This document shows positions 2,865 through 33,162 of a stretch of 39,983 bases of DNA, piece by piece. The DNA comes from Pyrinomonadaceae bacterium (GTDB lineage Bacteria > Acidobacteriota > Blastocatellia > Pyrinomonadales > Pyrinomonadaceae). The position numbers were made by a program, and so were the translations under genes. Under the pieces are notes generated by a model that saw nothing but the letters and a program-made list of their open reading frames with translations, did not search any database and had not been told where the DNA came from. Each line of letters starts with the position of its first letter. Position 1 is the first letter of the stretch. Location of the stretch: the NCBI GenBank assembly GCA_041487335.1, contig JBGPNE010000001.1:1-39983 (forward strand), written 5' to 3'.

Positions 2865-2890
2865 CGTGATAGTAGCGGCACTGTCGACGG

Positions 2891-8533: not shown

Positions 8534-9937
8534 TTATCTAGCCTCTGGGTTTTGCGCGGCTACGCGCCATCCGGGTGGATGGATTACGTTTGTCGCGATT
8601 TCTCTCGATGCCAGTATTTCAGCCGGCTTACCTGCACCGAGGTCACCCGAAACCGTAACTTCGTCCGGCAAAAATAAAGCGATCGGCCAGCGAAACTGCG
8701 CGAACGCTTCGCGCGCGATTGGTATTCGCTGAGGCTCGTAGCCAAGCAACTGCGCTCCAATCCAATCGATAGCAGCTGCATTGTTGCCGGCAAAGATCAA
8801 CCCCATTTCCAACGGCTGCGCGCAAAGCGGCCCGTCGCCCTGACCGGCCACGACCGCATCCGCCACGTGGATGACAACACGCTGAGGAGTATCGGCTAAG
8901 CTTCCGTCTGAACATCCGTATAAGAGCGCTCGATTAAGGTCCAGCCCTGTTCGCCAAACGGTGTTATTGCCCGACCAGGAGCCTTCGACTCCCAGACGGT
9001 CTCCCGCGAGCATCGATACACGGTTCAGATTTGTAGCGACTTCGCCCCAGAGTCGAGCGCTGGCAAATGATGAAGCCATGTTCTGGCGGTCAAGCGTGTA
9101 TTCGAGCGCACGCTTTACGCGGCTACCCCCAGGATAGCAATCGCCACCGGCTTCGGAACCCCCGATCCGATGATGGGGCAGGTACTCTTTATTTCCGTTT
9201 ATGCCGATTAAATTCTTGAGCGCGCATGTGATTCCCGCCTTCTTATGCGTCTTGAGCTTCGGAAGGTTGATGACTACGTCAGCGTCGATCACGTCTCTTG
9301 CGACAAGGTATTGATGGCGGCGTGGCGAATGCGTGTTTGCCAGCAACCGCGGGTCGTAGCAAGTAACACGGAAAGAGGGCTCTTCGTCAGTAACCGGCTC
9401 GAGCAGGCTCTCGCTCCCAAGATCAAACAGCACAAAGCGATCTTCTGCTACCAGATTCTCCGATGCGACTCGGACACCGTTTAGGAACTCGCACGTAGTC
9501 CTTCGGAAGTCGCGAATCCCCCGAAAGCGGGGCTCCGCGCTCGTCAAGCGGCTCGCCCACTTATCGAGACCAGTCGATCGTAGAAGTTCATCGAAGTGAC
9601 AACCCTGAATTGGGGCGTCGCCAACTATGACTTCCGATGCGGCTGACTGAAGAACAGCCTGAACGGTCGCCCGAATGAGAGAGGGATGGGTAATCAACGG
9701 TTCAATTCCCCAGGGGCCTTGATTCTCGTGCATCACCAGATTTGGTTTGATCACCACACGCGCGCCTCGAGGGATGATCCTGCCGAATGGCCCGTGTTCT
9801 TGATCTGACCAACCAAGCGAGCTTGCAGCCCGTACCATCGCACCGCCGGCGTCTTCCTCAGCCTTGTATCCGCGCGCGGAGGTTTTCGCGATCGCCACGC
9901 GAGGATCATTCAGCATCTGCAGAAAGGTAGTGGTCAT
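8534..9937 (-). CDS. DUF362 domain-containing protein
   Basis: ORF 8534..9985. Start trimmed to ATG 9937 (MTTTFLQMLNDPRVAI), which forms an ATGA overlap with the upstream stop (9934..9937, checked in the sequence). DUF362-type motifs: ARVVIKPNLV, VIVGDAP, and ADVVINLPKLKTHKKAGITCALKNLIGING...LPHH. Confidence 0.75.
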   Translation of the reverse strand: MTTTFLQMLNDPRVAIAKTSARGYKAEEDAGGAMVRAASSLGWSDQEHGPFGRIIPRGARVVIKPNLVMHENQGPWGIEPLITHPSLIRATVQAVLQSAASEVIVGDAPIQGCHFDELLRSTGLDKWASRLTSAEPRFRGIRDFRRTTCEFLNGVRVASENLVAEDRFVLFDLGSESLLEPVTDEEPSFRVTCYDPRLLANTHSPRRHQYLVARDVIDADVVINLPKLKTHKKAGITCALKNLIGINGNKEYLPHHRIGGSEAGGDCYPGGSRVKRALEYTLDRQNMASSFASARLWGEVATNLNRVSMLAGDRLGVEGSWSGNNTVWRTGLDLNRALLYGCSDGSLADTPQRVVIHVADAVVAGQGDGPLCAQPLEMGLIFAGNNAAAIDWIGAQLLGYEPQRIPIAREAFAQFRWPIALFLPDEVTVSGDLGAGKPAEILASREIATNVIHPPGWRVAAQNPEAR

Positions 9938-11349
9938 GCTGCGCGCCCCCCAGCAATATCGACTTCGCTGACGACCGGACGCCACTTGTTCGCCTTTGTT
10001 CGCGGGATTTCATCAACCAGCAGCGTGCTGATTCTGAGGCCAGGTAGGTTCTGCCGGACTGTCTCGAGTATCTTTTCGCTGGCGTCCTCACTGAAACCGC
10101 TTTTTGGAGCGATTTTGATCTCGACCGAATAGTCGGGCCGCTGAAGAAACATATACTCACGAACCGGATAATCTTTCATCAGGTGAGGAATCTGCAGACC
10201 CGTTATCCATCGACCATCAGGCAGCCAGATCCGGTCAACGTCGCGTCCTACAACATCATTCAGGATGAAAGCCGGATGGCCCGGCTTGGTTCCGGGCAAG
10301 AAGCGCGCAACATCGCCGACGCGATAGCGAATCATCGGCATTGCATCGGCATGGAGCTTGGTGATGAGAACGCTGGCTTCAATCTCGGTCGTTTCAGGTT
10401 CGATCAGAATGTTTGCCCAATCGATCTCATAAGCAAAAACGCGGTGAGGTTGCATCTGAAAGGCCATGTAGCCAACATCGCGGCTGCCGTAGCGTTCGTG
10501 AACCTGGCGCCCAAACGCGGCTTGAATTGCTTGACGATGTTGCGGCAAGAGCTTCTCGGCGCCGGTGATCAACACCCTCGACGGATAAGTTGGGCGATGC
10601 CCGCGCTCAAGTATATGCTCGGCGAGGTGACCCAGGGCGCTCGCGTAGGCGATTATGCATTCGGGCTGCCACCGCCGAAAGTGGCGGTGATACTCTTCGA
10701 GCACACCGGGTGAGAGACGAAGACAATCAAAATAGCGCGAGTTGGTCTCAAATGCGTGAAACAGGTCGCGCAGGCTGTCGTGGGCCTTCGGGTCGAGATG
10801 GTGTCCCCAGAGCAAGGCGGTGCGCACACCGCCGGGTACTCCCATACGCCGCATGAAGTATTCCCCCGCGCTCTCCCTCCACCCTCTCTCTTCGGGCCCA
10901 AGCCAGACTTCCGTAGGCGCTCCAGTTGAACCTCCCGTCGAGTCTCTGAGGAGTTCGTTAGCCGGAATCCTCTGCGACAACAATGCAGGTCCGGCGCTTT
11001 GGATGTTCTCCCGCTCAAGAACTGGGAGCCTGGAAAACTCTTCGAATCCGAAATCTACGCTTGGATCAAATGCGATCTGGTCTAGCATCTCACGATAGTA
11101 GTCCGTCTCGGCGTATGCGCGGCGGACAACAAAGCGCAGGCGCTGAAGAATCCAATCGAGTTTTTGCTCAGCCCTCCATGCTTCCGCCTGGCTGCGAAGC
11201 CTCATCCCTTCGTAATAAGCTCGAATGACGGCGCGTCGCGAGGGTCGAACCAGTCGCTGAAATCTCGACAGTGGCAATAGAAATCTCCGAGATAGTAAAT
11301 CGTGAGTACGTATAGCAAGTCTTTGCATCTCCGCGCTCCCTGCTCGCAT
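9934..11349 (-). CDS. Phenylacetate-CoA ligase (PaaK)/CapK-like adenylate-forming enzyme
   Basis: ORF 9934..11547. Start trimmed to ATG 11349 (MRAGSAEMQ...), directly after the upstream TAA (11352..11354). ATG 11328 is an alternative and has GGGAG 7 nt upstream. Motifs: LRDSTGGSTGAPTEVW (P-loop-like SxGTTG), YGSRDVGYMAFQ, MIRYRVGDVARF. Confidence 0.8.
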   Translation of the reverse strand: MRAGSAEMQRLAIRTHDLLSRRFLLPLSRFQRLVRPSRRAVIRAYYEGMRLRSQAEAWRAEQKLDWILQRLRFVVRRAYAETDYYREMLDQIAFDPSVDFGFEEFSRLPVLERENIQSAGPALLSQRIPANELLRDSTGGSTGAPTEVWLGPEERGWRESAGEYFMRRMGVPGGVRTALLWGHHLDPKAHDSLRDLFHAFETNSRYFDCLRLSPGVLEEYHRHFRRWQPECIIAYASALGHLAEHILERGHRPTYPSRVLITGAEKLLPQHRQAIQAAFGRQVHERYGSRDVGYMAFQMQPHRVFAYEIDWANILIEPETTEIEASVLITKLHADAMPMIRYRVGDVARFLPGTKPGHPAFILNDVVGRDVDRIWLPDGRWITGLQIPHLMKDYPVREYMFLQRPDYSVEIKIAPKSGFSEDASEKILETVRQNLPGLRISTLLVDEIPRTKANKWRPVVSEVDIAGGRAA

Positions 11350-11351
11350 CC

Positions 11352-14300
11352 TTACTTCCGTTTCACGCCGATGAAGATCAGCGCCGGACTGAAGGACGAG
11401 CTTTCGGCTCCCTTCTCGCCCAGAAGCAGTCGAAAGGCGAAATTCAAGGTCACCTGAAATTTCATGCAGAGCCCAAGCAGCCACTGCGATAGCGAGTTGT
11501 CCCGGGCATTGAACAGTCCAAAATTGAATGTCCCATAGTGATTGCAAAAAAGAGGAGAAAGCCGCTGCCTGTCGAATAGCTCCTTGAATTCCTGCTTTCG
11601 CATTATGGTCAGGTTATGCATGGCTAGAACCTCTTTGTGAAACATTCGTGCCAACAGGTAGTTGAATCCGCGAAGATTCGGAATGCTGATAACAAGAACG
11701 CCGCCTTTGGCCAGAAGATTCAAGTGCTTTTCGACGATGCTTTTTGCATCGGTGAAGTGCTCAATGAAGCCGCGCGAAATGACCATGTCAAAATAACCCG
11801 CGTAGCGCTTGTGAAATTCATCCGAAAGGAAGTCGCCATGAATGACGTTGTTGGGGTTTATGTTATTTTCGGCGAATACCTGTCGGTTCAGATTTACGCC
11901 TTTGTCCGAGTACTCGATGCCGTAGGGAACGAACTCAAACGTTTCGCTCAGTCTGACGAGGAAATCTCCCGGGGCGCTTCCCACCTCCAACACCTTTGCC
12001 CCGGCTTTCTTTGGCAGATGATTTTTGTAAATAACGTTCCAGAGCAGGTGATCCTCGTAGCTGCCCATGTACTCGAGCACCCTCTTGCCCAGGAGCTTCT
12101 TGACGAAAGTCTTGAAACGTCTATTCAGAGGCTGAGTGCCGGGAGGAATGTTTCTGATCTGATTCTTTCTTTCCAGGAACGCTTCTTCACTGACGTGCGT
12201 CAAATCCCAATATTGCCTTTGCGTTAACTCTCCAACCTCAACCGCCAAACCCGGGTTTCGGGTCAGTATTGGCGGCAAAGGTGCGCTCGGACCCGCAGTC
12301 GCCGCTAACGCTTCGGCATTCCAAACGCCGTAGCCAACGTTCACGATTCCGCCGCCGGCAACAGGAACCGCCCGCCGACCCCACGACAGATCAGGAAGAC
12401 GAACAAGCCGGCGTTCAATGAACTCTCGTTCCTGAGGTGTCAGAACGCCGAGCAACAGTAGAGCTACAACGTAGAAAAAACAAAAAACCATTCCGCTAGC
12501 GATAAGCAGAATCAGCGGCGGAGCCTCCAGCCCATAAGAGCGCACAAACAGCGAAGCAATCCCCGCCGCGAAGGCAGCGATTGCAAGCTTGGTTATGTCT
12601 TTCAGCAATCCGATATCGCGACGCGTAGCGCCAAGAATTCGACACACTTTGGTGGCGATGACGCAGCGCTCGATGAGGTTGAAGATTACGACGACGGTTA
12701 TCGCTCCGATCAAACCGAAGCGGCGCGTACCGAACCAGAGGCCGACCGAAAGCGCCGCAATTACCGCAACCCTCACTCTCATCATGAAGAACCGATGCTC
12801 GGCATAGGCTCGTATCACCGGGTCGCAAGCGCTTGCTATCAGACCCAGGGGGATCATCGTCAGGTTGATCGCGAATATCGGCCAGCTGGATTCGTATTGA
12901 GCCGTGAACAGGACGGTAATGAACTCTCGACCCATAACCAGCAAAAAGAAGTAAATGGGAAGGTAGAATGCGGCGAGCTTCCGCAACATTCTTGCGATCA
13001 GCTCAACGATCTCTCGATCGCGACCGTGCTTCTGCAAGTAGCTCACGTGAGGAATCGTTACCGAGCCTGCCGATTCGCTGAGGATTCCGATGAGCGGGAG
13101 GTTGAAACAGCCGATTGCATAGACGGCAAATTCCGCGGCGCTGAATTGGTGGGACACGAAATAATTGTGCAGATCCGCCTGTACCTGAAACAGGACTGAT
13201 GCAAGTCCTATTGGAAGCGCGTAGCCTACCTGAGTACGCACCATTCTCCAGTCGATCGTTCGCCAGAAGCTCCCGAAACGCGAGCGCAGATAAAGCAAGA
13301 GAACGGCGGTCTGCAGGATGCCGTATACGATCGCGACATTGATGAGAGCCTCAACCGTGGCAAGAGAAATTGCCGCGGCGACCATCAGCCCAGTTTTAAC
13401 AAGCTGCGAGACGATGATGAAGAAGGTCGCCAGCCGGGATTCCTGATTGGCAAGGGTCACAACCTCGAGAAACGAGGAGACCACCCAAAACAGGATGATC
13501 ACTCCAATTCGCGGGGCGTATCCGGTTAGCTCATCGCTCTTGAAGATCGTTCCCAGCAAGGATGGGTTTAGAATCAAAGCAAGGCACGCCCCGCACCCCA
13601 TCAACAAATAAAACAGCAGAATGTTAAAGACGACCTGATCGCGTCGCTCGCGCTCGCGCGGCAGGAAGTAGAAAGCGCTCATTCCAAATCCGAGAGGGAG
13701 AATGTAAATCGCTGTGCCGACAACAAGGAAAACCTGTTTGTACAACCCGAACTCGTGTTGGCTCAATCGGCGCACCAGCAGCAGCGGAAGGATAAAGCTC
13801 AGTCCGAATGCAAGACACTTAGCGAAGAATAGCCATCCGGCGCGTACCGTAAACGATTCGCCTCTTTCAAAGTCTGAACTTGCGCGGTCGTTTATCAGTT
13901 GCGAGCGGAGGTTGTAGATATGCAACAGCGCGCGAGGCGAGTACCGAAGCCACCACAGCATTAACCGCAACTTCCAACTTCGATAAAACCTATTGGCATC
14001 CTTGATCTCGGCAGCCGCGGTCTCGAAATCACCGGCGGATAGCTTTTGTTTGCCGCGTTCAAGCTTCGCGGTGGCCTGGAGCCTTACTTCCAGGTCACAC
14101 AGTGCCTGCCGTTCCTGCTCTCCCAACCTGAAGTCGAGCCGGTTTTTTCCCAGCACAAGCAGGGTATGTTCGTGCAGATTTACATGGTCTGCGCTAAGGC
14201 TCGCCGAGTGGATTCTCTTACAGAGCAGAACCTTTCGCTGATAAGCCAGCCGGCCGCCATTCATGGCCAGGCGAAGCCACAAGTCGTAATCCTCGGAACA

Positions 14301-14873
14301 CCGCAGACCTTCATCAAATAAGCCTACATCCAGTATCGATTGACGGCGCACCAGAGTGCCCGAAAGCAGCACCGTGCATCGCGCCTCGAGCAATGCTTGA
14401 AGCGTCACATCGCCCCTGGAAGGGGTGGTGCGCATAAAAGTACGGCCCGCAAGCGGCGAGTCACCAACAAGCAACCCGTCCGAGTAAACAAGATCAACCG
14501 ATGGATTGCTCTCTAAGAACTTCACTTGCTCCGACAGGTATTCAGGCTCCCAGTAGTCGTCCGCGTCGAGGAACGCTACCAGGCGCCCTAGCGCCGCACG
14601 TACGGCTACGTTTCTGGCGGCGGAGCAACCACGATTGTCCTGGTTTATGTAACGGATCCTATCCCGATAAGCAGCAAGCGCGTGCTCGAGAGCAACAGTG
14701 TCGGGAGAGCCGTCGTTCACGACGATGATTTCATAGTCGGCGTAAGTCTGCGTTAGAACTGAATCAAGGGCCGCTCCAATGTATTCCGCCGCACGATACG
14801 CCGGCATCACTACGGTTACGGTTGGCGAGTCGTTGCGATCGAACGCTTTGTCTGAAAACTCCGTTGAATGCAT
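11352..14873 (-). CDS. Tripartite fusion: GT2 glycosyltransferase / multi-pass polysaccharide flippase (Wzx/MOP-like) / class I SAM-dependent methyltransferase
   Basis: Uninterrupted 1173-aa ORF with ATG at 14873 (TAATG overlap with the upstream stop). aa ~17-235 (about 14169..14825): VTVVMPAYRAAEYIGAALDSVLTQTYADYEIIVVNDGSPD, FLDADDYW, CSEDYDLWLRL. aa ~340-815 (about 12429..13856): about 12-14 hydrophobic helices. aa ~930-1110 (about 11544..12086): AKVLEVGSAPGDFLV, FDMVISRGFIEHF, GGVLVISIPN. Confidence 0.8.
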   Translation of the reverse strand: MHSTEFSDKAFDRNDSPTVTVVMPAYRAAEYIGAALDSVLTQTYADYEIIVVNDGSPDTVALEHALAAYRDRIRYINQDNRGCSAARNVAVRAALGRLVAFLDADDYWEPEYLSEQVKFLESNPSVDLVYSDGLLVGDSPLAGRTFMRTTPSRGDVTLQALLEARCTVLLSGTLVRRQSILDVGLFDEGLRCSEDYDLWLRLAMNGGRLAYQRKVLLCKRIHSASLSADHVNLHEHTLLVLGKNRLDFRLGEQERQALCDLEVRLQATAKLERGKQKLSAGDFETAAAEIKDANRFYRSWKLRLMLWWLRYSPRALLHIYNLRSQLINDRASSDFERGESFTVRAGWLFFAKCLAFGLSFILPLLLVRRLSQHEFGLYKQVFLVVGTAIYILPLGFGMSAFYFLPRERERRDQVVFNILLFYLLMGCGACLALILNPSLLGTIFKSDELTGYAPRIGVIILFWVVSSFLEVVTLANQESRLATFFIIVSQLVKTGLMVAAAISLATVEALINVAIVYGILQTAVLLLYLRSRFGSFWRTIDWRMVRTQVGYALPIGLASVLFQVQADLHNYFVSHQFSAAEFAVYAIGCFNLPLIGILSESAGSVTIPHVSYLQKHGRDREIVELIARMLRKLAAFYLPIYFFLLVMGREFITVLFTAQYESSWPIFAINLTMIPLGLIASACDPVIRAYAEHRFFMMRVRVAVIAALSVGLWFGTRRFGLIGAITVVVIFNLIERCVIATKVCRILGATRRDIGLLKDITKLAIAAFAAGIASLFVRSYGLEAPPLILLIASGMVFCFFYVVALLLLGVLTPQEREFIERRLVRLPDLSWGRRAVPVAGGGIVNVGYGVWNAEALAATAGPSAPLPPILTRNPGLAVEVGELTQRQYWDLTHVSEEAFLERKNQIRNIPPGTQPLNRRFKTFVKKLLGKRVLEYMGSYEDHLLWNVIYKNHLPKKAGAKVLEVGSAPGDFLVRLSETFEFVPYGIEYSDKGVNLNRQVFAENNINPNNVIHGDFLSDEFHKRYAGYFDMVISRGFIEHFTDAKSIVEKHLNLLAKGGVLVISIPNLRGFNYLLARMFHKEVLAMHNLTIMRKQEFKELFDRQRLSPLFCNHYGTFNFGLFNARDNSLSQWLLGLCMKFQVTLNFAFRLLLGEKGAESSSFSPALIFIGVKRK

Positions 14874-16738
14874 TAACGAGCCCTTGACCTCGTGAGATTC
14901 GCGGCCGTCGAATTGGCTGCCGCGCGAGTATCAACCTTTTCATTGAGGCGATTTGTTGCATTGACTTCGGTCTTCAACAACGTTCTGTCTGAAGACCGCG
15001 CCAGCTGAGCGGAATCGGACGCGGCCTTGAGCGTGTCAATATCAGATCCAATGTTCTTGCCGTCGGTTCCTGCGCCTTGATATGGGCTTGAAGTGCCAAG
15101 CGCATAATTGCCGCCCGTGCGATCCGCAAATCTGACTTCCTCGATCGTCGCCGGAAAGAAGTTGTCCCCCGGATATATTGAGCTCCGGCCGCCGGCGATT
15201 ACGTTCTTCTTGAAAACACGCCCGGGGAAATACCTGTCGAGCGTCGAATTGCCGACGCTCGAGCCGTCGCCCATGACTCCGTACTCGTTATGAGGAGCGA
15301 TGTTGTTTGTGAAAACGAATCCTTTACTGGCAGCCCCGTAGGCGGTGATGATATTCCCCGAGTGCAAAACGGTATTGTGATCAACCGTCACATCTTGAGT
15401 CTCGACAATCTGAAGGAATCGTCCGTTGCTTCCCCAGCGTTTGCCGCCAACATCCTCAAACAGATTGTTCCTTATCAAAACCCGTTTCACTTGCTCGCTG
15501 GGATAGTTGTCGTCTCGACCGAGGAAATTGATGCCCGCAGCAGTGTGTCGGACGATATTGTTACTGAATTTGACGTCTTCGACTACGGACCAGGGCGAAG
15601 TGCCTTCCTGGTTGCGGACCGTGAAAAGGATGGCAAAGCCACTCTGTCCGTCCACCCAGTTGTTCTCGAATAGATTTCCGTCGATGATAACGCGCCGGGC
15701 ATTTTTCAATTCGAACAGGTTTTTCACAGACCAGGGCTTCCCTGCGTAGGAAGAATGTTGTCGCATCCACGAGAGAGGCTTTGAACAATGATTCCGGCGA
15801 AATTCAATGTCGGAAGGGACCAGATTTTGGATTCTAGGATCGGCGCCTCCGAACATAACGTTCTCGCCCGCGCCTTCGAGATAGTTGTTGACAATCTTGA
15901 ACGGCCCCGGACCGTTCCATCCGCAGATCGCCTGAGAATCAGCCCCTGCTTCGTGAACTTCAGAGATGTGTGAATCAATTATTGCGGTTGAGGCGCTGTT
16001 GAGCGCAATCGCCCGCCGCAGATTAACATCGGCGTTACCGTGAATATAACAGCGGTCGATAATTAGATTGTTCGGGATTGTGTCGGGCGAGGTTTGTCCG
16101 CCATCGCCGAACAGGATGAGGCCATGATTCTGTGCCCAGCCTGGCGCGACTGTGAACTCGATGCCGATAAACCGATAGTGATGCGCCCCGGGCGCGGTCC
16201 TGATCACAGGATCGGCATTGGGCGTCAGGAGCTTTGGCATCACCGAGGCCGTACCCGGTCTCACGCGCGCGCCAGGAGCGGGTAGCTTTTCGTCGCCGAC
16301 AGACGAGCGAATCACTGTCCAGCCCGCGCCTTGTTTGTTGGGCAGCACGAAATTGCCGGTAACAATTGAGCCCGGTTCGATTGCAATCACGTCGCCGGAA
16401 CGCGCCGCATCAAGCGCCGCCTGAAATGCACGCGCCGCGGTATCGCCAATCCCGCTGACTGAAATGGTGCGGCCGATCGGGCGTACATAGTTTGTGTCGA
16501 GGAAGACGGCCGGCGGCGCAGGCTTTCTCATACCCGCGTTGGATTCAGCCAGTTGACTTACGGTAACTGGCCTTGAGGTTGCGTCGCTTGCGTCACGCGT
16601 GCAAGCCGCAATACAGAGCGCGGCACTTAACGAGATGAAAACCATCAGCACCGACACGTAAGCACGAGAATTAAGCGAGCGGATCCCAGGGCGCCCCGCT
16701 TTTTCGGTGGTTCTGAACCGGAAAATGTTCACCAGCAC
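14873..16738 (-). CDS. Secreted (possibly lipoprotein) right-handed parallel beta-helix repeat protein, paralog 2 (minimal form)
   Basis: 621 aa. The start codon at 16738 is GTG and overlaps the upstream gene end (TGA 16729..16731). A second GTG at 16732 and ATG at 16645 are alternatives. Signal-like LMVFISLSAALCIAAC. Shares the family motifs DRCYIHG, GWNGPGPFKIVNNYLEGAGEN, PSDIEFRRNHCSKPLSW, WSVKNLFELKNARRVIIDGNLFENNW and PHNEYG. Confidence 0.85.
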   Translation of the reverse strand: MLVNIFRFRTTEKAGRPGIRSLNSRAYVSVLMVFISLSAALCIAACTRDASDATSRPVTVSQLAESNAGMRKPAPPAVFLDTNYVRPIGRTISVSGIGDTAARAFQAALDAARSGDVIAIEPGSIVTGNFVLPNKQGAGWTVIRSSVGDEKLPAPGARVRPGTASVMPKLLTPNADPVIRTAPGAHHYRFIGIEFTVAPGWAQNHGLILFGDGGQTSPDTIPNNLIIDRCYIHGNADVNLRRAIALNSASTAIIDSHISEVHEAGADSQAICGWNGPGPFKIVNNYLEGAGENVMFGGADPRIQNLVPSDIEFRRNHCSKPLSWMRQHSSYAGKPWSVKNLFELKNARRVIIDGNLFENNWVDGQSGFAILFTVRNQEGTSPWSVVEDVKFSNNIVRHTAAGINFLGRDDNYPSEQVKRVLIRNNLFEDVGGKRWGSNGRFLQIVETQDVTVDHNTVLHSGNIITAYGAASKGFVFTNNIAPHNEYGVMGDGSSVGNSTLDRYFPGRVFKKNVIAGGRSSIYPGDNFFPATIEEVRFADRTGGNYALGTSSPYQGAGTDGKNIGSDIDTLKAASDSAQLARSSDRTLLKTEVNATNRLNEKVDTRAAANSTAANLTRSRAR

Positions 16739-19331: not shown

Positions 19332-20126
19332 TCACCGGGTTGCGACACGGGCCCTGGCCAGAGCCACTCGCGATTTGCGAGGCGCTAACCGGCACCGCAC
19401 AATCGCCGTGAACAACTCTCTCGTCAGGGGATTTGAAAGCAGACGCGCTCGCCTGATCGGCACGGCTTCGAAGGTTTTGAAATCAAACTCGCTTTCCCGA
19501 ACGAGCGTTTTGAATCGGCGAATTGTCATCTGGTTGAGTCCGCCGTCGATTTCCGAAAAGCGAGTCGCGCCGTCGGATTTGAAATCGGAGCGCCAGCGAA
19601 GCAGGCAATGCTCGGTAAACAGGAGATGCGCCCATGGGAAGACCGAAAACAAGTGACCGCCAAGTGGGTGATACCACGTCGGACCAAACCCAATAATTAC
19701 AACTCCGTCATCTTTCAGGAGCCCGCGCATAGTTCGCAGAATGTTCGCCGGATCGTCAAAGTGTTCGAACGCGTCTATCGACAGGATTACATCGGCTTTT
19801 TCGGCCGTTTCAGCCGCGAAGTGGCAGCGATCTGAAACACCTGATTGCTCTGCTCGGTTTCTCGCATCGTTTAGCAGACTCGTCCGCATTTCGAGTCCAA
19901 TGACTCTTTGCGCGCCGTGCTCGGCTATCTCCACGGCTTCAACCCCCGATCCGCACCCAAAATCGATCACGACTTTACCTTCAAACCCCTTCCAGATCTG
20001 CGGACCTAATAGCACTTCAAGCTTGCTGCGGCCTTTGTACGCGCTCCCATCGCAATAGCCGGTCTCGCCGTCCGCGCTTACGGATTTCAGTAGCCTGTAT
20101 CCTATTGTCCCGCCTATTATTCCCAT
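19332..20126 (-). CDS. Class I SAM-dependent methyltransferase
   Basis: 264 aa with ATG at 20126. Motif I KVVIDFGCGSGVEAVEIAEHG, plus VIGLEM and ADVILSIDAFEHF. Confidence 0.85.
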   Translation of the reverse strand: MGIIGGTIGYRLLKSVSADGETGYCDGSAYKGRSKLEVLLGPQIWKGFEGKVVIDFGCGSGVEAVEIAEHGAQRVIGLEMRTSLLNDARNRAEQSGVSDRCHFAAETAEKADVILSIDAFEHFDDPANILRTMRGLLKDDGVVIIGFGPTWYHPLGGHLFSVFPWAHLLFTEHCLLRWRSDFKSDGATRFSEIDGGLNQMTIRRFKTLVRESEFDFKTFEAVPIRRARLLSNPLTRELFTAIVRCRLAPRKSRVALARARVATR

Positions 20127-24645: not shown

Positions 24646-24670
24646 ATATCTTATTGTCCTTCGTTGGCTG

Positions 24671-25906: not shown

Positions 25907-25924
25907 AAGACAGTGTATGAATGC

Positions 25925-27424
25925 CTACGATCTCGCACGGGCCGCCAGGGATCTCGCGGCGACCGATGCTTTATCCCTCCAGATAACTCCGACCGGCCTG
26001 GCACCGTTGTGCGGCGGTTCGATTGCGCGATTGCCTGCGATAACAGAAGTAACTTGCTCGGACGCGTGAATGCGGCGGAGCACGATCGCATATGCCACGG
26101 GGTAGTAGAGAAACCACTGATACTGTATTGACCCGAAAAAACTGCAAACTATGTAGGCAAAAAGCGCCGCTTGCATCGCAATGCTCAGGCAATGACTCTC
26201 GTGTCTGCGGGTTCCGCCGGGATCTTTGACCACAAGACTTGAATCCTGAACATCAGTTTCGCGCTCAATTCTTCGCAAGGACCGCAACGGCGCCAGGATT
26301 AGCAGCAAGTAGGCCACCAGTCCCGCCAGTCCAAGCTCAGCCGCTATTTCCAGATATGAGTTATGAGCAACTTGCTCGTGAATCGAATAGATGTGGAAAT
26401 TGCCAATACCGATACCAACGATTGGATGATGGGCCGCGACGCTGACGGAGCGATCAAGCAGATCGCGACGCGCCTGAGATGAGCCGGTCGGATCTTCTCC
26501 TATGTTGAACATAGATGTTATCCGGCCTGCGTAACCGCTCGGCAACGCGAGCACAAAGACGCCGAACATCACAGCAAATGCCAGGGCAGTGCTGGCGCGA
26601 TTCTGACGCCCCGCCTTCCACAACAGCACGCCGCCCATCGCTAACAGACCCAGAAAGCCGCCGCGCGAGAACGTAACAATCACGCCGGCGGTGAGCACCG
26701 CGGCGCAAGCGAAGTAGAGCATGCGTTTCAATCCGTCGCTTATCAGCGCAAGCGCGACCGCGAGCGGCAACAGCAAATCGAGGCTGGTCGCCAGATCATT
26801 CGGATTTCCGAAGAAGCCTCCGACGGCCCCGGTTATCCTGAGTCCAACGACCCCCACATCCTTCTTCTCGACTATCGTGAAATCGCCTACTAAATAGCTC
26901 TTGATCGCCAGGACGGCGAAAATGCTCCCGCACACCACTACCAGATTCATCATCGAAAGAAGCCGGTCGCGCGTAGTAATCACATTCACCATCAGCACGA
27001 AGATAATTATCACCTTGATGAACATGTCCATCAGGACGTCAACGCTATCCATAGGCGCAGCGGCCAGCGGCGCAAACAACACCCCGAGCACCGCGATGAC
27101 GCTCAACAGCTTTAGTTCGATCGGCAGAATAGTCAGGGGCTCTCCGCTCCCGGGTTTAGACGCCAGATACGCGACTATCGCGACGGCTGCGATTATTCTG
27201 GAAATCGGGAAGGTGCCCAGCACCTCCGGGAACATCTCATTTGGGCGGATATAAAGAAGAAGCGTAAACAGATAGAGGCCAGCGAAAGCAATTCGATGCG
27301 CACCGCGCGATTTGCCGATATTGAGCGATTTCGCGTGCCGTGCCCCAAGTGAACTGCTGTTAGCATCACCGGCGACCTGCTCGTTTGCCAATTGCGGATT
27401 GATAGTCTTGCTTATTTGGCTCAT
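25925..27424 (-). CDS. O-antigen ligase / Wzy-like polymerase family membrane protein
   Basis: 499 aa with ATG at 27424 and about 10-12 hydrophobic helices. Wzy_C-type loop: FSRGGFLGLLAMGGV ... HEQVAHNSYLEIAAELGLAGLVAYLLL. Confidence 0.8.
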   Translation of the reverse strand: MSQISKTINPQLANEQVAGDANSSSLGARHAKSLNIGKSRGAHRIAFAGLYLFTLLLYIRPNEMFPEVLGTFPISRIIAAVAIVAYLASKPGSGEPLTILPIELKLLSVIAVLGVLFAPLAAAPMDSVDVLMDMFIKVIIIFVLMVNVITTRDRLLSMMNLVVVCGSIFAVLAIKSYLVGDFTIVEKKDVGVVGLRITGAVGGFFGNPNDLATSLDLLLPLAVALALISDGLKRMLYFACAAVLTAGVIVTFSRGGFLGLLAMGGVLLWKAGRQNRASTALAFAVMFGVFVLALPSGYAGRITSMFNIGEDPTGSSQARRDLLDRSVSVAAHHPIVGIGIGNFHIYSIHEQVAHNSYLEIAAELGLAGLVAYLLLILAPLRSLRRIERETDVQDSSLVVKDPGGTRRHESHCLSIAMQAALFAYIVCSFFGSIQYQWFLYYPVAYAIVLRRIHASEQVTSVIAGNRAIEPPHNGARPVGVIWRDKASVAARSLAARARS

Positions 27425-27430
27425 AACCGC

Positions 27431-28447
27431 TTAATGAGTTTGCCCTGCCACTGCTCCTCTGCGAGCGTAGACAAGGCGATTCTTGATTTCTTCGAATCCA
27501 CTGGTGCATTGAATGAAGCGCGCGAGATTGTTGTCTGTGTGAACTCGCCGAAGCCGGAACATGTCGCTGGCAATTTCATTAAGACCTGCATCGACAGTCA
27601 CTGCGGATCTGTACCCGGCGGCGCGAACGGCCCGCGAGACCCGCTCGTCGTAATCGCCGTTGGGATAGCAGAATAGATCGACCTTGCGTCCGAGCATCGC
27701 TTCAAGCCGCGAGCGCGAATCACATAACTCCCTGCGCAAACGCTCGTCGGTAACATTGGTGAGTATGGGATGAGTGGTGGTGTGCGAACCGATTTGAAAG
27801 CCGGCGGCGTCCATTTCGCGCGCCTGCTCCCAGGTGATTGGGCCATACTCGTCGGGCGGTCCATCAGGTAATTCGACGCCGAGCGACGACGCAATTCGGA
27901 GGATCACCCCTTCCTTTACGTCATCAGGTAACTGCTTGAGCGCGGAGTTGATTTGCGAGGCCGCCTCGATGCGGGACTTGTGGTCGTCAAGCCCTGTATG
28001 CAGCGAGGGATTGTTTATCGTTATATTGAAGTTCTCAGATCCAGCGTGCGTTGCCAGAAAGCGCATTTTGTCAGTCCAGAGCCATATCCTCCGATCAAGG
28101 AATTCCGTGACAACGAAGAGCGTCGCCGGGGCGTTGTATTCGCGGAGGATGGGAAACGCAATTTCATAAGCATCCCGGTAGCCATCATCAATCGCGATTG
28201 AGGCGGTGCCCGCCGGCAGACGCGCGCCACGCGACAGATACTCGGCCAGCGTAGATAGGGGAACAATCCGGTAATGAGTTGTCAGGTAATGGAGTTGCTC
28301 GGCAAATGCGCGGGCTGAAGTTGTGCCACCATCGCCCGTATGACTAAACCGATGGTAAGTGAGAATAAGCGCCTTGTCCCGATTAGCCATTCTAAACGGG
28401 GCGAATGCGCCGGTAGCGCGCAGCAGATTGAGGACTGTCTGTTTCAT
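27431..28447 (-). CDS. Polysaccharide deacetylase (NodB/CE4) family protein
   Basis: 338 aa. ATG at 28447 overlaps the upstream TAA (TAATG). NodB motifs IAIDDGYRDAYEIAFPILREYNAPATLFVV, GSHTTTHP and FCYPNGDYD. Confidence 0.85.
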   Translation of the reverse strand: MKQTVLNLLRATGAFAPFRMANRDKALILTYHRFSHTGDGGTTSARAFAEQLHYLTTHYRIVPLSTLAEYLSRGARLPAGTASIAIDDGYRDAYEIAFPILREYNAPATLFVVTEFLDRRIWLWTDKMRFLATHAGSENFNITINNPSLHTGLDDHKSRIEAASQINSALKQLPDDVKEGVILRIASSLGVELPDGPPDEYGPITWEQAREMDAAGFQIGSHTTTHPILTNVTDERLRRELCDSRSRLEAMLGRKVDLFCYPNGDYDERVSRAVRAAGYRSAVTVDAGLNEIASDMFRLRRVHTDNNLARFIQCTSGFEEIKNRLVYARRGAVAGQTH

Positions 28448-29307
28448 TAGTCTCCGCTGTTCATTTTCTGGGCGAGCGCGTAACCGGCATCAACACGACG
28501 TCGCGCGCGCAGGCTTCTCCGCAGTTCGTCCTTTTCTTTCTTCGTCGGCAGCCGGTACCGCTTGCCCACGGTTGTTTCCTGCGGGCGCGGCGCAGCGGTG
28601 CCTTCGGCGATCATTCGTACCGCCTCGGCCACGAGGTTGCCGCAAGGCACCCTGAGCTTCTGACGGTAGTCGTCGATGAATGCTTCGTAATCGAGTTGAT
28701 ACGAATAGTCGTATTCAAGCGGAACAGTCCGCTGCACGATGATGTCGCCGGTATCGACTTTTGATGCAACGAAGTGAACCGTCAGCCCTACTTCGCGCTC
28801 GCCATTTCGCAATTCCCAGAAAATCGACGGGCCGCCGCGATAGTAAGGCGCAAGACCCTGGTGCAAGTTGATTGATCCCAGCCTTGGTATTTTGAACACC
28901 GATTCCTTGAGGATGTTTGTTCCGAGCACTATTCCCAGATCAGAATCTGCTCCCTTCATCAGGGCCATTGAATGTTTATTGTGATAGTTGTCAACAAAAT
29001 GCACGGGTATGCCGTTCTCGTCCGCCAACTCTCGTAAATGATCGCGGCTGACTGCAATTGACTTTATGCCGTCATCATAGAGGCCGCCCTTTCCCAGCAT
29101 TTTGCGCCCGACCTTTCTGAAGGTGGCGGCATAGCCGTCATACCGGATTGATCGAGCAATCTTTTCTCGAAGGCTCCGATGGCGCAGGATATCTGTTTCG
29201 ACAAATATGCCTGCAACTTCAGCGCATTCAAGTTTCAGCAGCCTTTTGATCGCGAGTTCGCATCCTCCCTGAGTCAACACGATCACCCGCAGCTTTTGCT
29301 CATTCAT
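28447..29307 (-). CDS. Formyltransferase family protein (Fmt/ArnA-N-like)
   Basis: ORF 28447..29433. Start trimmed to ATG 29307 (MNEQKLRVIVLTQGG), which forms an ATGA overlap with the upstream stop (29304..29307). Catalytic-type motifs SINLHQGLAPYYRGGPSIFWELRNGE (N..H) and KVDTGDIIVQ (Asp). Confidence 0.8.
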   Translation of the reverse strand: MNEQKLRVIVLTQGGCELAIKRLLKLECAEVAGIFVETDILRHRSLREKIARSIRYDGYAATFRKVGRKMLGKGGLYDDGIKSIAVSRDHLRELADENGIPVHFVDNYHNKHSMALMKGADSDLGIVLGTNILKESVFKIPRLGSINLHQGLAPYYRGGPSIFWELRNGEREVGLTVHFVASKVDTGDIIVQRTVPLEYDYSYQLDYEAFIDDYRQKLRVPCGNLVAEAVRMIAEGTAAPRPQETTVGKRYRLPTKKEKDELRRSLRARRRVDAGYALAQKMNSGD

Positions 29308-29783
29308 AAGCCGTAAGCCTCCGCTATTTGCGCGCTCGGTTCTTGTTTCTCCCTCGAGCCACGTCGAACAGCAGTCAGGTAAGACAAGATCGAGTAAACA
29401 GGAGCAAGGCTTCGGCCCATCGCGTAAGCACAAAACGCCATGCTTGCTATCTCGAACACGGAACCGGGAACCTCGACGCCGTTCATCTTGCTCAGCTCTG
29501 GGAAGAATTCCAACGCGTAGGCCTTCATGACCAGATCCTGCAGATCAGTTCGATCGGTGAGGCCGAATATCACCCTGGGTGAGACACTAAGTCCGAGGGC
29601 GAGTCTAAGCGTGCTCTCAAGGCTCAAACTGGTGATGATGGAGTTCTGTATCTTAGACAGCAGTCCTTGATCGAAGCCGGTCAACCTGCAAAAGTCTGAC
29701 TGTTTGAGCTCTAGTTCTTCGAGCCGGCGGCGTACAAAAACTGCAAGCGGCGTTGGCCTGCCCGCATTTCTGTCTTTTCTCAT
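29304..29783 (-). CDS. XRE-family helix-turn-helix transcriptional regulator with an uncharacterised C-terminal domain
   Basis: ORF 29304..29999. Start placed at ATG 29783 (MRKDRNAGRPTP...), preceded by TGGAGGG 4 nt upstream. ATG 29882 is a longer alternative. HTH: FVRRRLEELELKQSDFCRLTGFDQGLLSKIQNSIITSLSLESTLRLALGLSVSP. Confidence 0.7.
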   Translation of the reverse strand: MRKDRNAGRPTPLAVFVRRRLEELELKQSDFCRLTGFDQGLLSKIQNSIITSLSLESTLRLALGLSVSPRVIFGLTDRTDLQDLVMKAYALEFFPELSKMNGVEVPGSVFEIASMAFCAYAMGRSLAPVYSILSYLTAVRRGSREKQEPSAQIAEAYGL

Positions 29784-29883
29784 GGGCCCTCCAGCACTCA
29801 GCGCTGCGTTGAGGTGCGCCGCCCAAGGCGAGAAATGCGATTCGCCCGAGGCTCCGGTTTGACGATTATTTCTGATGAGCATT

Positions 29884-30666
29884 TCAAAAGCCCCGAACAA
29901 ACCCGAGGAAATTCCCGAAGCCCAGCATTGCCGTAATGGTAGATAACTTTTTTCTTGTGTTGCCGTGCACGATGATCGTATCGCCGGCTTCAAGCGCAAG
30001 GTTTTCTTCCGGTTCGGCTTTGCCTTCGAGTATCCGTTTAAGGTTGACCTTCCTTATTAGCGATCGCCCCCCACCAATCTGGCGCAGCACAGTTACATCG
30101 GACTTACTGCCGGTATCGGAGATTCCGCCCGAAGCTGAGATTGCGTCGAGGACGGTCATCGGCCTTGCCATCACCACGACGCCGGGATGGGTGACATCGC
30201 CAAGCACGCCTATCTTCGCGCTGTTGGCGGAAAGGAGGGATAGGCTTACCTTCGGCTCGATTATGTATTGGCTCAACTCAATCGTTAATTTCTCCGTGAG
30301 TTTTGGAACGGTCATACCGGCGACGTCGATGTCGCCAAGCAGCGGGTGATAGATCCGGCCGACTGGCGAGATCGTCAACTGTTCGATGGAGTAGTCCGGC
30401 TGCCCTTTAACCCGCAACGCTAGCTGATCCTCCGGACCAAGCTTGTAGCTGTTATAGAAGTCGCGATAGATCGCTCGGAAGTAATCGTCGCCGGGATCGG
30501 GAGGTAATACGGACCGAGGAGGCGTCGCCGGCCCAAAATGTGAAGCGCCGGCCGGCGACGCTGTTTGCGATTGACCCGCTCTTAGCGAAGAAGGGCCTGC
30601 CACGAACACGAATATGGCAATCATCGCAAGGCTGGCTGTTCTCAATGCAAATGTGTTGGTTCTCAT
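29884..30666 (-). CDS. Polysaccharide export protein (Wza-like; Poly_export + SLBB domains)
   Basis: 260 aa with ATG at 30666, preceded by GGAGGA. Signal peptide MRTNTFALRTASLAMIAIFVFVAGPSSLRA. YKLGPEDQLALRV...ISPVGRIYHPLLGDIDVAGMTVPKLTEKL...PKVSLSL, then IGVLGDVTHPGVV...LDAISASGG...LEAGDTIIV. Confidence 0.85.
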   Translation of the reverse strand: MRTNTFALRTASLAMIAIFVFVAGPSSLRAGQSQTASPAGASHFGPATPPRSVLPPDPGDDYFRAIYRDFYNSYKLGPEDQLALRVKGQPDYSIEQLTISPVGRIYHPLLGDIDVAGMTVPKLTEKLTIELSQYIIEPKVSLSLLSANSAKIGVLGDVTHPGVVVMARPMTVLDAISASGGISDTGSKSDVTVLRQIGGGRSLIRKVNLKRILEGKAEPEENLALEAGDTIIVHGNTRKKLSTITAMLGFGNFLGFVRGF

Positions 30667-30735
30667 GATTCCTCCAGTTGAAAGGATTGAGGTCCGATCG
30701 ATGTTGTCCCCGTTCGGCGCAATTTCATCGCCTTT

Positions 30736-32118: not shown

Positions 32119-32215
32119 GGACAAAACCTCTTCGCTTAGTGGCGATTCGAGCCTGGTCGAACAACGCAGACGAACCGCGCCTTGACCACCACGCGAACGA
32201 GAACGGGAAACGCAC

Positions 32216-33001: not shown

Positions 33002-33162
33002 TCGTTGTCGCTCGTGCCGGAGAATCCTCAACGGCAATGGAGGACCATCCTGCCGGGTGACCTTCAATCTCAGCTTTCTTTAGAGCGTCGTATATTTTCC
33101 CCATAACTCCTCTAATCCTTTTCGGCAATCCGTCTCTTTAGAACAGGGCTGCAAGAAACTCC

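Follow-up and report, generated by a model that had tools for sequence, protein, structure and literature searches.

The window, the whole 39,983-nt stretch analysed here, derives from a member of the Blastocatellia (Acidobacteriota), a soil acidobacterium. On its minus strand, positions 11352..14873 form one ORF that runs without interruption through 1173 codons to its stop (ORF list and translation); the plus-strand frame of the same interval is riddled with stops. A sequence-only reading had already recognized this 3,522-nt frame and its 1173-aa product, leaving the strand unstated. From N to C terminus, the protein joins a GT2 glycosyltransferase (aa 15-328), a MOP/Wzx-type flippase (aa 343-826), and a SAM-dependent methyltransferase (aa 880-1173), the order proposed in that reading, whose boundaries (17-235, 340-815, and 930-1110) lie near ours. 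All Pfam matches exceed the gathering cut-offs: Glycos_transf_2 at aa 20-125 (107.7 bits, E 8e-31), Glyco_tranf_2_3 at aa 17-220, Polysacc_synt_3 at aa 365-663 (66.3 bits, E 3.5e-18), Polysacc_synt at aa 346-608, and Methyltransf_23 at aa 955-1101 (45.7 bits, E 8e-12). The earlier assignment of the central region to the flippase families is thus upheld by profile, as are those of both flanking domains. A homologue search returns the protein itself (P0001, 100%) and 20 full-length homologues.

By its predicted gene content, the surrounding region is a Wzx/Wzy-type, XrtA/PEP-CTERM-like exopolysaccharide locus. Immediately upstream, a 621-aa beta-helix protein (14873..16738, minus strand) is encoded by a gene whose stop codon runs into the start of the fused gene (TAA and ATG overlap as TAATG), and it has the same position in L001, L002, L004, L018, and L087-L089. 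Downstream follow a CoA-ligase-like protein of about 470 aa (9934..11349, minus strand), with a probable ATG at 11349, 2 nt past the stop of the fused gene, and a DUF362 protein (8534-9985); this CoA-ligase-like/DUF362 synteny is conserved in related loci. The same operon-like array contains the remaining Wzx/Wzy machinery, also minus-strand (25925..34734; Pfam and NCBIfam), which comprises Wzy_C (25925-27424), a deacetylase, a formyltransferase-like protein, a Wza-like exporter (Poly_export, 29884-30666), an initiating phosphoglycosyltransferase (30736-32124; TIGR03013, 497.9 bits, above the cut-off of 393), a tyrosine kinase (32216-33067), and a Wzz-like chain-length determinant (33163-34734). 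No second MOP protein was found within the window, leaving the fused gene as its sole MOP flippase. Further, a stand-alone methyltransferase of 264 aa (19332..20126, minus strand; Pfam) belongs to a different family than the fused one, with 23% identity across 105 aa only, but co-occurs with it (five of five tri-domain loci vs one of six loci with GT2-flippase proteins).

The GT2 catalytic domain adopts a GT-A fold (14169..14831, minus strand, aa 15-235; PF00535/PF13641; AF2 pLDDT about 90) and carries the motifs NDGSPD (aa 53-58), D103-A-D-D106 (DXD; nt 14556-14567), and SEDYDLW (aa 193-199), which are kept in 40+ homologues. Among PDB profiles, K4CP (1.6e-45), 6p61 (3.5e-34; TMt 0.87 by Foldseek), and PglI (9.6e-27) cover the whole GT-A domain; the fold also matches WrtF, and the NCBIfam matches are TuaG and EpsD. 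The adjoining segment (13890..14168, minus strand, aa 236-328), described earlier as a helical linker, belongs to the ancestral GT2 protein as its C-terminal, helical part: AF2 places helices at aa 230-332, and GT2 orthologues that stand alone (310-350 aa) align across aa 11-327. Neither a TM segment within aa 236-328 nor a QxxRW motif was found, and cellulose synthases match weakly (PDB profiles, E 2.9e-4 and weaker). Linker 1 (13848..13889, minus strand, aa 329-342), the former GT2/flippase gene junction, is predicted with pLDDT <50 at aa 328-340 and has 30% mean pairwise identity.

The MOP/PST (Wzx-like) flippase (12396..13847, minus strand, aa 343-826; PF13440/PF01943) contains 14 TM helices within aa 343-808, followed by a short C-terminal helix (hydrophobicity and AlphaFold2), consistent with the 12-14 helices first estimated. 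Its AF2 domain model (pLDDT 88, pTM 0.86) superimposes on MurJ with TM 0.73-0.79 and on WzxE with TMt 0.79 (Foldseek), and R368 and R532 are invariant. Loops on the side of the termini hold 23 K/R residues vs 5 on the other side. Because of this positive-inside pattern and the even helix count, the flippase core is predicted to be N-in/C-in with both enzyme domains on the cytoplasmic face, as the sequence-only reading had supposed subject to the number of helices.

Linker 2 (12237..12395, minus strand, aa 827-879) is a variable-length tether of about 53 aa, with pLDDT 24-49, a mean pairwise identity of 16%, and different lengths among homologues. It leads into the class I SAM-dependent methyltransferase unit (11355..12236, minus strand, aa 880-1173; PF13489/PF13847), which consists of an N-terminal helical extension (aa 886-952) and a Rossmann core (aa 955-1115) with motif I, L962-EVGSAPG-969 (nt 11967-11990), which is invariant. 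Stand-alone orthologues of 280-340 aa align across aa 874-1172 (representative library); one of 293 aa occurs in L038/L046. PDB matches are weak and generic, the best being UbiG (1e-5), and include phosphoethanolamine N-methyltransferases. Since AF2 assigns the whole protein a pTM of only 0.49, no inter-domain interface is predicted.

This domain composition bears on a reading in which the GT2, like GtrB or ArnC, makes a polyprenyl-phosphate monosaccharide and the fused transporter flips this donor for periplasmic decoration. Three-component glycosylation systems do couple a GT2 with a flippase (10.1101/2019.12.12.873851), a synthase-flippase fusion exists in MprF (10.1101/2022.03.11.483950), and DPMS (5.8e-11) and ArnC (5e-7) are detectable relatives of the GT2. 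However, the latter matches are limited to the N-terminal half (aa 16-135), whereas the best whole-domain matches (K4CP, 6p61, PglI; TuaG, EpsD) act on oligosaccharide or polymer acceptors, and aa 236-328 lack the C-terminal TM hairpins of the GtrB type. Moreover, the transporter is of the 14-TM PST/Wzx type rather than GtrA or ArnEF, is the only candidate for flipping repeat units in a locus with Wzy, and the methyltransferase would be left without a role. We therefore consider this reading very improbable.

The tri-domain architecture recurs in about 20 other full-length protein clusters (90%-identity clustering; 53-79% identity, 1150-1213 aa) drawn from metagenomes of independent origin and from genome assemblies of Blastocatellia (JGI, ENA, Logan, and NCBI MAGs). 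The frame lies on contigs as long as 7.9 Mb and 559 kb, was re-found in the DNA of L002, L004, L087, and L088, and is embedded in a gene order common to tri-domain loci of independent samples. The linkers diverge in sequence across these homologues yet hold the reading frame. Because the full-length architecture recurs across independent samples, different projects, and different assemblers, we regard the merging of three genes in this contig by an assembly or gene-calling error as effectively refuted and, for practical purposes, excluded. All three domains are under purifying selection and retain their catalytic or binding motifs, with dN/dS values against L004 of 0.11 (GT2), 0.07 (flippase), 0.07 (methyltransferase), and 0.32 (linker 2). 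The gene is a genuine, conserved, lineage-specific fusion of ordinary parts and not a new kind of machine. Full-text literature searches returned no description of the tri-domain architecture.

As the sequence-only reading stated, each of the three parts normally has a gene of its own, and split orthologues of each occur in related loci. The flippase stands alone in 71 of 80 related species-level loci, and in 17 of 64 loci the orthologous GT2 is the gene directly upstream of it. Stand-alone orthologues in other Acidobacteriota exopolysaccharide loci belong to the same three families (45-60% identity) but are separate genes, and their loci share the neighbourhood GT4, UDP-glucose dehydrogenase, beta-helix protein, [GT2, flippase], CoA-ligase-like, DUF362, and AsnB-like. 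In the split locus L018, of identical synteny, a 328-aa GT2 is followed by a 540-aa flippase with overlapping stop and start codons (TGATG), and this junction corresponds to linker 1. Bi-domain GT2-flippases of Blastocatellia (P0017, P0022-P0048; about 830-880 aa; annotated at JGI as 'O-antigen/teichoic acid export membrane protein / GT2 family glycosyltransferase') share synteny and the N-terminal two-thirds (55-75% identity) with the tri-domain protein but stop about 20-40 residues past TM14, without the methyltransferase domain. Their loci usually lack the stand-alone locus methyltransferase as well (one of six loci has it). In a simple NJ tree of the flippase, without support values, bi-domain and tri-domain forms are interleaved in the same clade. 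P0049, P0050, and L065 carry a different GT2 type on the same flippase family, which shows that GT2-flippase fusion took place more than once.

These relatives suggest a route by which the fusion may have formed. Read-through of the overlapping stop and start codons between adjacent genes would have joined GT2 and flippase, and the locus methyltransferase would have been captured later onto the GT2-flippase. In its plainest form, this history would be neutral: loss of a stop codon joined overlapping neighbours, the domains work independently, and nothing is gained kinetically or in regulation. A TGATG-type overlap makes such a fusion a one-step event, and the flexible linkers with no predicted interface agree with it. 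As split forms dominate and the methyltransferase domain is patchily distributed, missing in several nested lineages, the fusion may indeed give no advantage. Nevertheless, tri-domain proteins have been maintained down to about 53% identity, with every domain under purifying selection, and GT2-flippase fusions arose more than once, with different GT2 families. In the split loci seen, the methyltransferase gene is not adjacent downstream (in L038/L046 it lies ~4 kb upstream of the flippase); therefore, its capture took more than read-through. On balance, a purely neutral fusion seems unlikely.

The account that we favour, and consider probably correct, is that three genes from a single exopolysaccharide locus of a Blastocatellia host became fused in the service of late tailoring. 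The flippase would carry a repeat unit linked to undecaprenyl diphosphate through the inner membrane, and the tethered enzymes would act on this lipid-linked intermediate at the cytoplasmic face before flipping, the GT2 by adding one sugar and the methyltransferase by methylating it. The benefit could lie in a fixed 1:1:1 stoichiometry and a high local concentration of the late tailoring enzymes at the flippase.

A stricter coupling had been suggested by the sequence-only reading, in which the final sugar comes from the GT2, the methyl group serves as a terminal cap, and the two reactions gate flipping mechanically as a completion checkpoint. The enzyme domains do lie on the face where the inward-open cavity of the flippase loads substrate, GT2-flippase fusion recurs in this flippase family, and MOP flippases can tell decorated from undecorated substrate, as TacF does by monitoring phosphocholine (PMC13385700). 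Such cavity selectivity, however, would gatekeep without any fusion, and a last-acting role of the GT2 lacks support in a locus with at least four other glycosyltransferases. The linkers, poorly conserved, variable in length, and predicted with low confidence, together with the prevalence of stand-alone orthologous flippases, leave the checkpoint unsupported. Moreover, nested relatives without the methyltransferase domain keep a flippase of 55-75% identity, and thus the flippase needs no methylation in cis. We judge an obligatory mechanical checkpoint improbable. The same features (mostly stand-alone flippases, many nested relatives missing the methyltransferase, and poorly conserved linkers) show that the pathway clearly does not need covalent coupling. 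The fusion is best read as co-localizing late tailoring steps in the cytoplasm with the flippase.

In concept, the fusion resembles MprF, in which a cytoplasmic biosynthetic domain is joined to a membrane domain translocating the lipid-linked product, and whose synthase and flippase domains also function when expressed apart (10.1101/2022.03.11.483950). The folds and substrates are unrelated (PplT/DUF2156 vs MOP and GT2), and in MprF, the synthase produces the very lipid that is flipped, whereas GT2 and methyltransferase here presumably tailor a carrier-bound oligosaccharide. BcsA, hyaluronan synthase, and PgaC likewise join a GT2 to a glycan-translocating inner-membrane domain. In contrast to these synthases, the fused GT2 is without QxxRW, its membrane part is a MOP transporter rather than a synthase channel, and its locus is Wzy-dependent.

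The idea of a methyl group as an export-ready mark is shared with WbdD, a terminating methyltransferase from O-antigen assembly that depends on an ABC transporter. WbdD combines a kinase with a methyltransferase, has a coiled-coil ruler, and is not fused to the transporter, and in its pathway, the polymer is finished in the cytoplasm and exported by an ABC transporter, which differs from the Wzx/Wzy-type locus here; PDB searches found no sequence relationship between WbdD and the fused methyltransferase.

The closest counterparts of the membrane part are the Wzx/PST flippases and MurJ, which share its MOP fold (TM-score 0.73-0.79), although its sequence is only 13-15% identical to those of solved structures. 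WzxE (PDB 9g9p), TacF, and MurJ (PDB 5t77/6nc8) match the same Pfam families, Polysacc_synt_3 and Polysacc_synt; the 14 helices are those of MurJ, compared with 12 in WzxE, and the N-in/C-in topology is that of Wzx/PST flippases. The usual partners of a Wzx-type locus are also present here, namely initiating phosphoglycosyltransferase, Wzy, chain-length determinant with kinase, and Wza-like exporter. While characterized Wzx proteins are stand-alone and about 410-510 aa long, the fused protein adds an N-terminal GT2 of 330 aa and a C-terminal methyltransferase of 294 aa.

The fused gene is a 1173-codon ORF that runs without interruption on the minus strand (11352..14873); a plus-strand reading of the same interval is rejected, as its translation is full of stops. 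In the encoded protein, Pfam detects GT2 glycosyltransferase families (Glycos_transf_2, PF00535, at aa 20-125 with 107.7 bits against a cut-off of 23.3; PF13641 at aa 17-220), flippase families (Polysacc_synt_3, PF13440, at aa 365-663 with 66.3 bits, cut-off 23; Polysacc_synt, PF01943, at aa 346-608 with 36.9 bits, cut-off 28.2), and methyltransferase (MT) families (class I PF13489 at aa 955-1101 with 45.7 bits, cut-off 27; PF13847 with 43 bits), all above their gathering scores. The sequence-only reading had described these three domains on one ORF, and this HMM check bears it out. NCBIfam gives no equivalog for any part of the protein: the best named families, TuaG, EpsD, and UbiG, remain far below their cut-offs, with TuaG on the GT2 reaching 96 bits versus a cut-off of 400. 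Names in public databases are automatic only, such as “glycosyltransferase” or a triple COG label.

An assembly artefact is rejected because the full-length architecture recurs across samples. A search of 5.8 billion clustered proteins yields about 20 other clusters with the tri-domain order GT2-flippase-MT (1150-1213 aa, 53-79% identity, 98-100% query coverage), which stem from JGI, ENA, Logan, and NCBI assemblies, among them two Blastocatellia-annotated contigs of 7.9 Mb and 559 kb. Moreover, the tri-domain gene is found again in the DNA of the related loci L002/L003, L004, L087, and L088, each time in the same neighbourhood. Both linkers, linker 1 (aa 329-342) and linker 2 (aa 827-879), vary in sequence and length among homologues while the reading frame is kept. 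As judged from sequence comparison, an assembly-induced fusion is effectively excluded.

The ancestral units are defined by the stand-alone orthologues: GT2s of 310-350 aa align to aa 11-327 of the fused protein, flippases of ~510 aa to aa 336-830, and methyltransferases of 280-340 aa to aa 874-1172. According to these alignments, a helical N-terminal extension opens the MT unit near aa 880, and aa 236-328 are the helical C-terminus of the GT2 protein. Thus, the region behind the GT2 core is indeed helical, as had been proposed, but belongs to the GT2 itself and is not a separate linker. In a whole-protein AlphaFold2 model built with a 45-sequence alignment, the domains are confident (pLDDT roughly 85-93), while pLDDT drops below 50 in two segments, aa 328-340 and aa 825-885. 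The whole-protein pTM is 0.49, and consequently no fixed inter-domain arrangement is predicted.

Among 20 tri-domain proteins, mean pairwise identity is 0.68 for the GT2 core, 0.65 for the flippase, and 0.70 for the MT core, versus 0.30 for linker 1 and 0.16 for linker 2. Measured against L004, dN/dS is 0.11 for the GT2, 0.07 for both flippase and MT, and 0.32 for linker 2. By these evolutionary criteria, all three domains are functional. Within linker 2, a VGYGVWN motif (aa 840-852, nt ~12318-12356) is common only to the P0001-P0009 subclade, in which P0001 is the self-match of the fused protein, and is absent from the P0010-P0021 subclade.

The flippase domain was modelled separately, since Foldseek on the whole 1173-aa model returned GT2 matches only. 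The MOP fold consists of two 6-helix bundles (12 TM), optionally followed by TM13-14 as in MurJ. The domain model (pLDDT 88, pTM 0.86) has 14 TM helices and superposes on MurJ (7wax/6nc8, TM 0.73-0.79) and on the lipid III flippase WzxE (9g9p, TMt 0.79) with E-values of 2e-7 to 5e-7, with MATE transporters ranking lower in the list. Searched by sequence against the PDB, the flippase domain has no match at E<=1. R368 and R532 are invariant. The even helix count places both ends on the same side of the membrane, and the loops on this side carry 23 K/R versus 5 on the opposite side. Topology is thereby predicted to be N-in/C-in with both enzyme domains in the cytoplasm, the compartment that supplies nucleotide sugars and SAM; the cytoplasmic tethering suggested earlier agrees with this prediction, and neither soluble domain is placed in the periplasm. 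The assignment of the central region to the MOP/PST/Wzx group, likewise made in the sequence-only reading, is borne out by Pfam score, MurJ/WzxE-like MOP fold, predicted orientation, and association with a Wzy locus.

The GT2 domain retains its characteristic motifs (NDGSPD, D103-A-D-D106, and S-E-D-Y-D-L-W). Conservation covers the DXD metal/nucleotide-sugar motif and the acidic catalytic region behind it: among 45 homologues, D103 is invariant, and at least 90% retain D105, D106, E194, and D195. Foldseek assigns a GT-A fold (6p61, TMt 0.87; WrtF, 0.72; SpsA, 0.72), and the best PDB matches cover aa 5-245 (K4CP, E 1.6e-45; 6p61, E 3.5e-34; PglI, E 9.6e-27). Hence 6p61, the chondroitin polymerase K4CP, PglI, and WrtF, GT-A enzymes acting on oligosaccharide or polymer acceptors, match the GT2 over its whole length, whereas the polyprenyl-phosphate GT2s DPMS (E 5.8e-11) and ArnC (E 5e-7) match only aa 16-135. 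Further, aa 236-342 contain no TM segment and thus lack the C-terminal membrane-anchoring helices of the GtrB/ArnC type. A GtrB-type enzyme is rejected on both grounds. A processive synthase of the BcsA/HAS/PgaC type, in which a GT2 is likewise joined to a membrane domain, is rejected as well: the Q/RxxRW synthase motif is absent anywhere in the fused protein, BcsA matches with E 2.9e-4 and weaker, and the membrane domain is MOP.

The glycine-rich motif I of the MT domain (E-x-G-S-A-P-G, aa 963-969) does not vary among 17 orthologues, whether fused or stand-alone, and V964 is conserved in at least 90%. AlphaFold2 predicts a Rossmann-like core whose strands (960-964, 982-987, 1010-1012, 1028-1034, 1054-1065, 1105-1113, and 1164-1171) are interleaved with helices at pLDDT of about 80-90. 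In single-sequence and profile searches, the closest PDB entries are UbiG (1.1e-5) and phosphoethanolamine N-methyltransferases (1.6e-5); this similarity is only generic and points to no particular methyl acceptor (sugar O-, N-, or carboxyl-methylation). A separate 264-aa methyltransferase of the locus, 19332-20126 (-), shares 23% identity over 105 aa with the fused MT and belongs to a different family, and a duplication of one from the other is rejected. The separate enzyme is present in all five tri-domain loci with enough flank (the window, L002, L004, L087, and L088) and in one of six bi-domain loci, that is GT2-flippase loci without MT (present in L014; absent from L001, L011, L027, L030, and L089), in a sample that is small and phylogenetically non-independent. 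Together, the fused MT and the 264-aa methyltransferase resemble a single, optional methylation module.

Between about 860 and 38800, every gene is on the minus strand, and the packing is tight. The upstream beta-helix gene ends in a TAA that overlaps the fused gene's ATG as TAATG, and the next ATG follows 2 nt after the stop of the fused gene. The array encodes a Wzz-like chain-length determinant with a tyrosine kinase, an initiating phosphoglycosyltransferase (Bac_transf), a Wza-like exporter (Poly_export), a formyltransferase-like protein and a polysaccharide deacetylase, Wzy (Wzy_C), a second GT2 and three GT4s, a heparinase II/III-like protein, two AsnB-like amidotransferases, the separate methyltransferase, a UDP-glucose dehydrogenase, two beta-helix proteins, and a CoA-ligase-like protein with DUF362. 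The adjacent UDP-glucose dehydrogenase makes UDP-GlcA a candidate donor for the fused GT2. There is no second MOP transporter in the window, and the fused protein is the only MOP protein of the locus. The ORFs 2891-4093 and 864-3059, considered as a second transporter or an exosortase, are rejected with 0-1 hydrophobic segments and no Pfam match. The fused flippase is most naturally assigned as Wzx in an exopolysaccharide pathway of the Wzx/Wzy-dependent type. The best-named relatives are families of XrtA/PEP-CTERM loci. Among them, TIGR03013, matched by the phosphoglycosyltransferase, alone passes its cut-off (497.9 versus 393.35), and TIGR03108, TIGR03087, TIGR03088, TIGR03007, TIGR03027, TIGR03018, and TIGR03097 stay below theirs. 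Within the window, no exosortase is matched by Pfam among the scanned ORFs of at least 150 aa, and no PEP-CTERM tail occurs at the C-termini inspected.

Several neighbours deserve mention in their own right. Directly downstream of the flippase, the gene pair 8534-11349 (-) is conserved in many related loci; it encodes a ~470-aa protein with a weak match to DVU_1553-family AMP-dependent CoA ligases and no Pfam match, followed by DUF362 and then by an AsnB-like amidotransferase. These genes possibly serve acylation or amidation of the polysaccharide. The block 22090-27424 (-), with the heparinase II/III-like gene (851 aa), the second GT2, and Wzy between the deacetylase and the upstream AsnB-like gene, is missing at this position in L001 and L002, and the heparinase-like gene is found there in L087. 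The beta-helix paralogues, 14873-16738 (-) with 621 aa and 864-3059 (-) with 731 aa, have no family assignment and occupy conserved positions in related loci; the 621-aa protein, translationally coupled to the fused gene by the TAATG overlap, carries a lipobox-like sequence at its N-terminus (…LCIAAC). A 1093-aa secreted PKD/TIG-repeat protein, 35551-38832 (-), adjoins the locus, as it does in L001, L002, and L089, and has no PEP-CTERM tail at its C-terminus.

The fused gene originated by fusion of genes of the locus. A flippase-only profile scan over one genome per species (GTDB) gave 515 relatives, the best 80 of which are almost all from Acidobacteriota (Blastocatellia, Pyrinomonadaceae, and a few Bryobacteraceae), with one assembly labelled Binatia. 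Profiling these 80 loci with domain HMMs built from the family revealed 71 stand-alone flippases, six GT2-flippase fusions, two complete tri-domain genes, and one flippase-MT gene that is 5'-truncated. Of the 64 stand-alone cases for which upstream sequence exists, 17 have an orthologous GT2 (HMM score >=350) as the gene immediately upstream, and 12 more have it elsewhere within 10 kb. In L018 and L067, the synteny of the window is exact and GT2 and flippase are two genes, which in L018 overlap by TGATG. L038 and L046 have stand-alone MT orthologues (293 aa, score 415-425), located ~4 kb upstream of the flippase gene. The same domain order and split orthologues of all three parts both occur among related loci.

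In a neighbour-joining tree of 128 flippase domains, which carries no support values and is indicative only, all tri-domain and most bi-domain proteins form one clade without a stand-alone flippase, and the bi-domain members are interleaved with the tri-domain ones. This pattern suggests a single GT2-flippase fusion, an early gain of the MT, and several later MT losses. Other GT2-flippase fusions adjoin stand-alone flippases elsewhere in the tree. P0049, P0050, and L065:8612-11518 join the same flippase family to a GT2 in which SDATT replaces DADD, which scores only 237 with the family GT2 HMM and is labelled cellulose synthase/PNAG-synthase-like by JGI. As this is a different GT2 type, the GT2-flippase fusion arose at least twice. 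Among the best 150 matches in 1.84 billion 50%-identity representatives, the tri-domain protein is found full-length in one representative (P0018) and otherwise as fragments, and the architecture appears confined to this family.

Related proteins show further arrangements. P0017, the closest bi-domain relative (75% identity, without MT), is encoded in L084:4924-8493 with a stand-alone GT2 (333 aa) directly upstream of its GT2-flippase gene. P0181 (917 aa; Polysacc_synt_3 at aa 38-337, Wzy_C at aa 670-801) joins the same flippase family to a C-terminal Wzy_C and would be a Wzx-Wzy fusion. P0051 and P0052 (832 and 811 aa), flippases of this family, carry a ~330-aa N-terminal extension that has no precomputed Pfam domain and is unalignable with GT2. 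The ORF of P0222 (672 aa), a flippase of this family, continues into a transposase domain (HTH_Tnp_1, aa 547-616), probably a read-through into an insertion sequence.

Probably, the flippase moves an Und-PP-linked repeat unit that GT2 and MT modify at the cytoplasmic face before flipping, and tethering provides fixed stoichiometry and proximity. The sequence-only reading went further and proposed that GT2 adds the last sugar, that MT adds a methyl cap, and that the fusion acts as a built-in completion checkpoint. We find no support for these claims, and three observations weaken them: the linkers are flexible, split orthologues predominate, and close relatives repeatedly lack the MT. Nothing in the data requires more than co-localisation. 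It is conceivable, though in our estimate improbable, that the fusion records, in Rosetta-stone fashion, a physical complex for late assembly: GT2 and MT would dock on the flippase in its inward-open state and work on a repeat unit whose lipid-diphosphate head already sits in the cavity, coupling finishing and flipping kinetically, and the co-occurring stand-alone methyltransferase would belong to the same optional methylation module. Such docking, if real, would amount to substrate channelling or an intrinsic quality gate. To our knowledge, little is established about how cytoplasmic glycosyltransferases and tailoring enzymes of Wzx/Wzy pathways are organised around Wzx, or about what makes Wzx prefer complete repeat units.

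Conservation of the tri-domain fusion down to ~53% identity, together with recurrent GT2-Wzx fusion involving different GT2 types, provides genomic (Rosetta-stone) evidence that the enzymes work beside the flippase, and hence a hint that late tailoring takes place there. Structural studies of a GT-flippase assembly could use the fused protein as a single-chain target, and the natural split, bi-domain, and tri-domain variants allow testing whether tethering matters, within the serious practical limits set by hosts that are uncultured soil Blastocatellia. We regard the finding as useful, not transformative.

The sequence-only reading knew of no description of the tri-domain architecture; likewise, our full-text literature search turned up no paper on a fusion of the MOP-GT2 or MOP-GT2-methyltransferase kind. 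One candidate report (PMC11340318) is rejected, as its many occurrences of “fused” refer to cloning constructs. The parts are well-known families, the pathway type is standard, and the history of the fusion is conventional; it is not a new mechanism. The MOP flippase TacF performs gatekeeping from the specificity of its cavity alone (PMC13385700), and thus a fusion is not needed for gatekeeping. A conceptual precedent for joining a synthase to a flippase is MprF, a synthase-flippase fusion whose two domains also work apart (10.1101/2022.03.11.483950).
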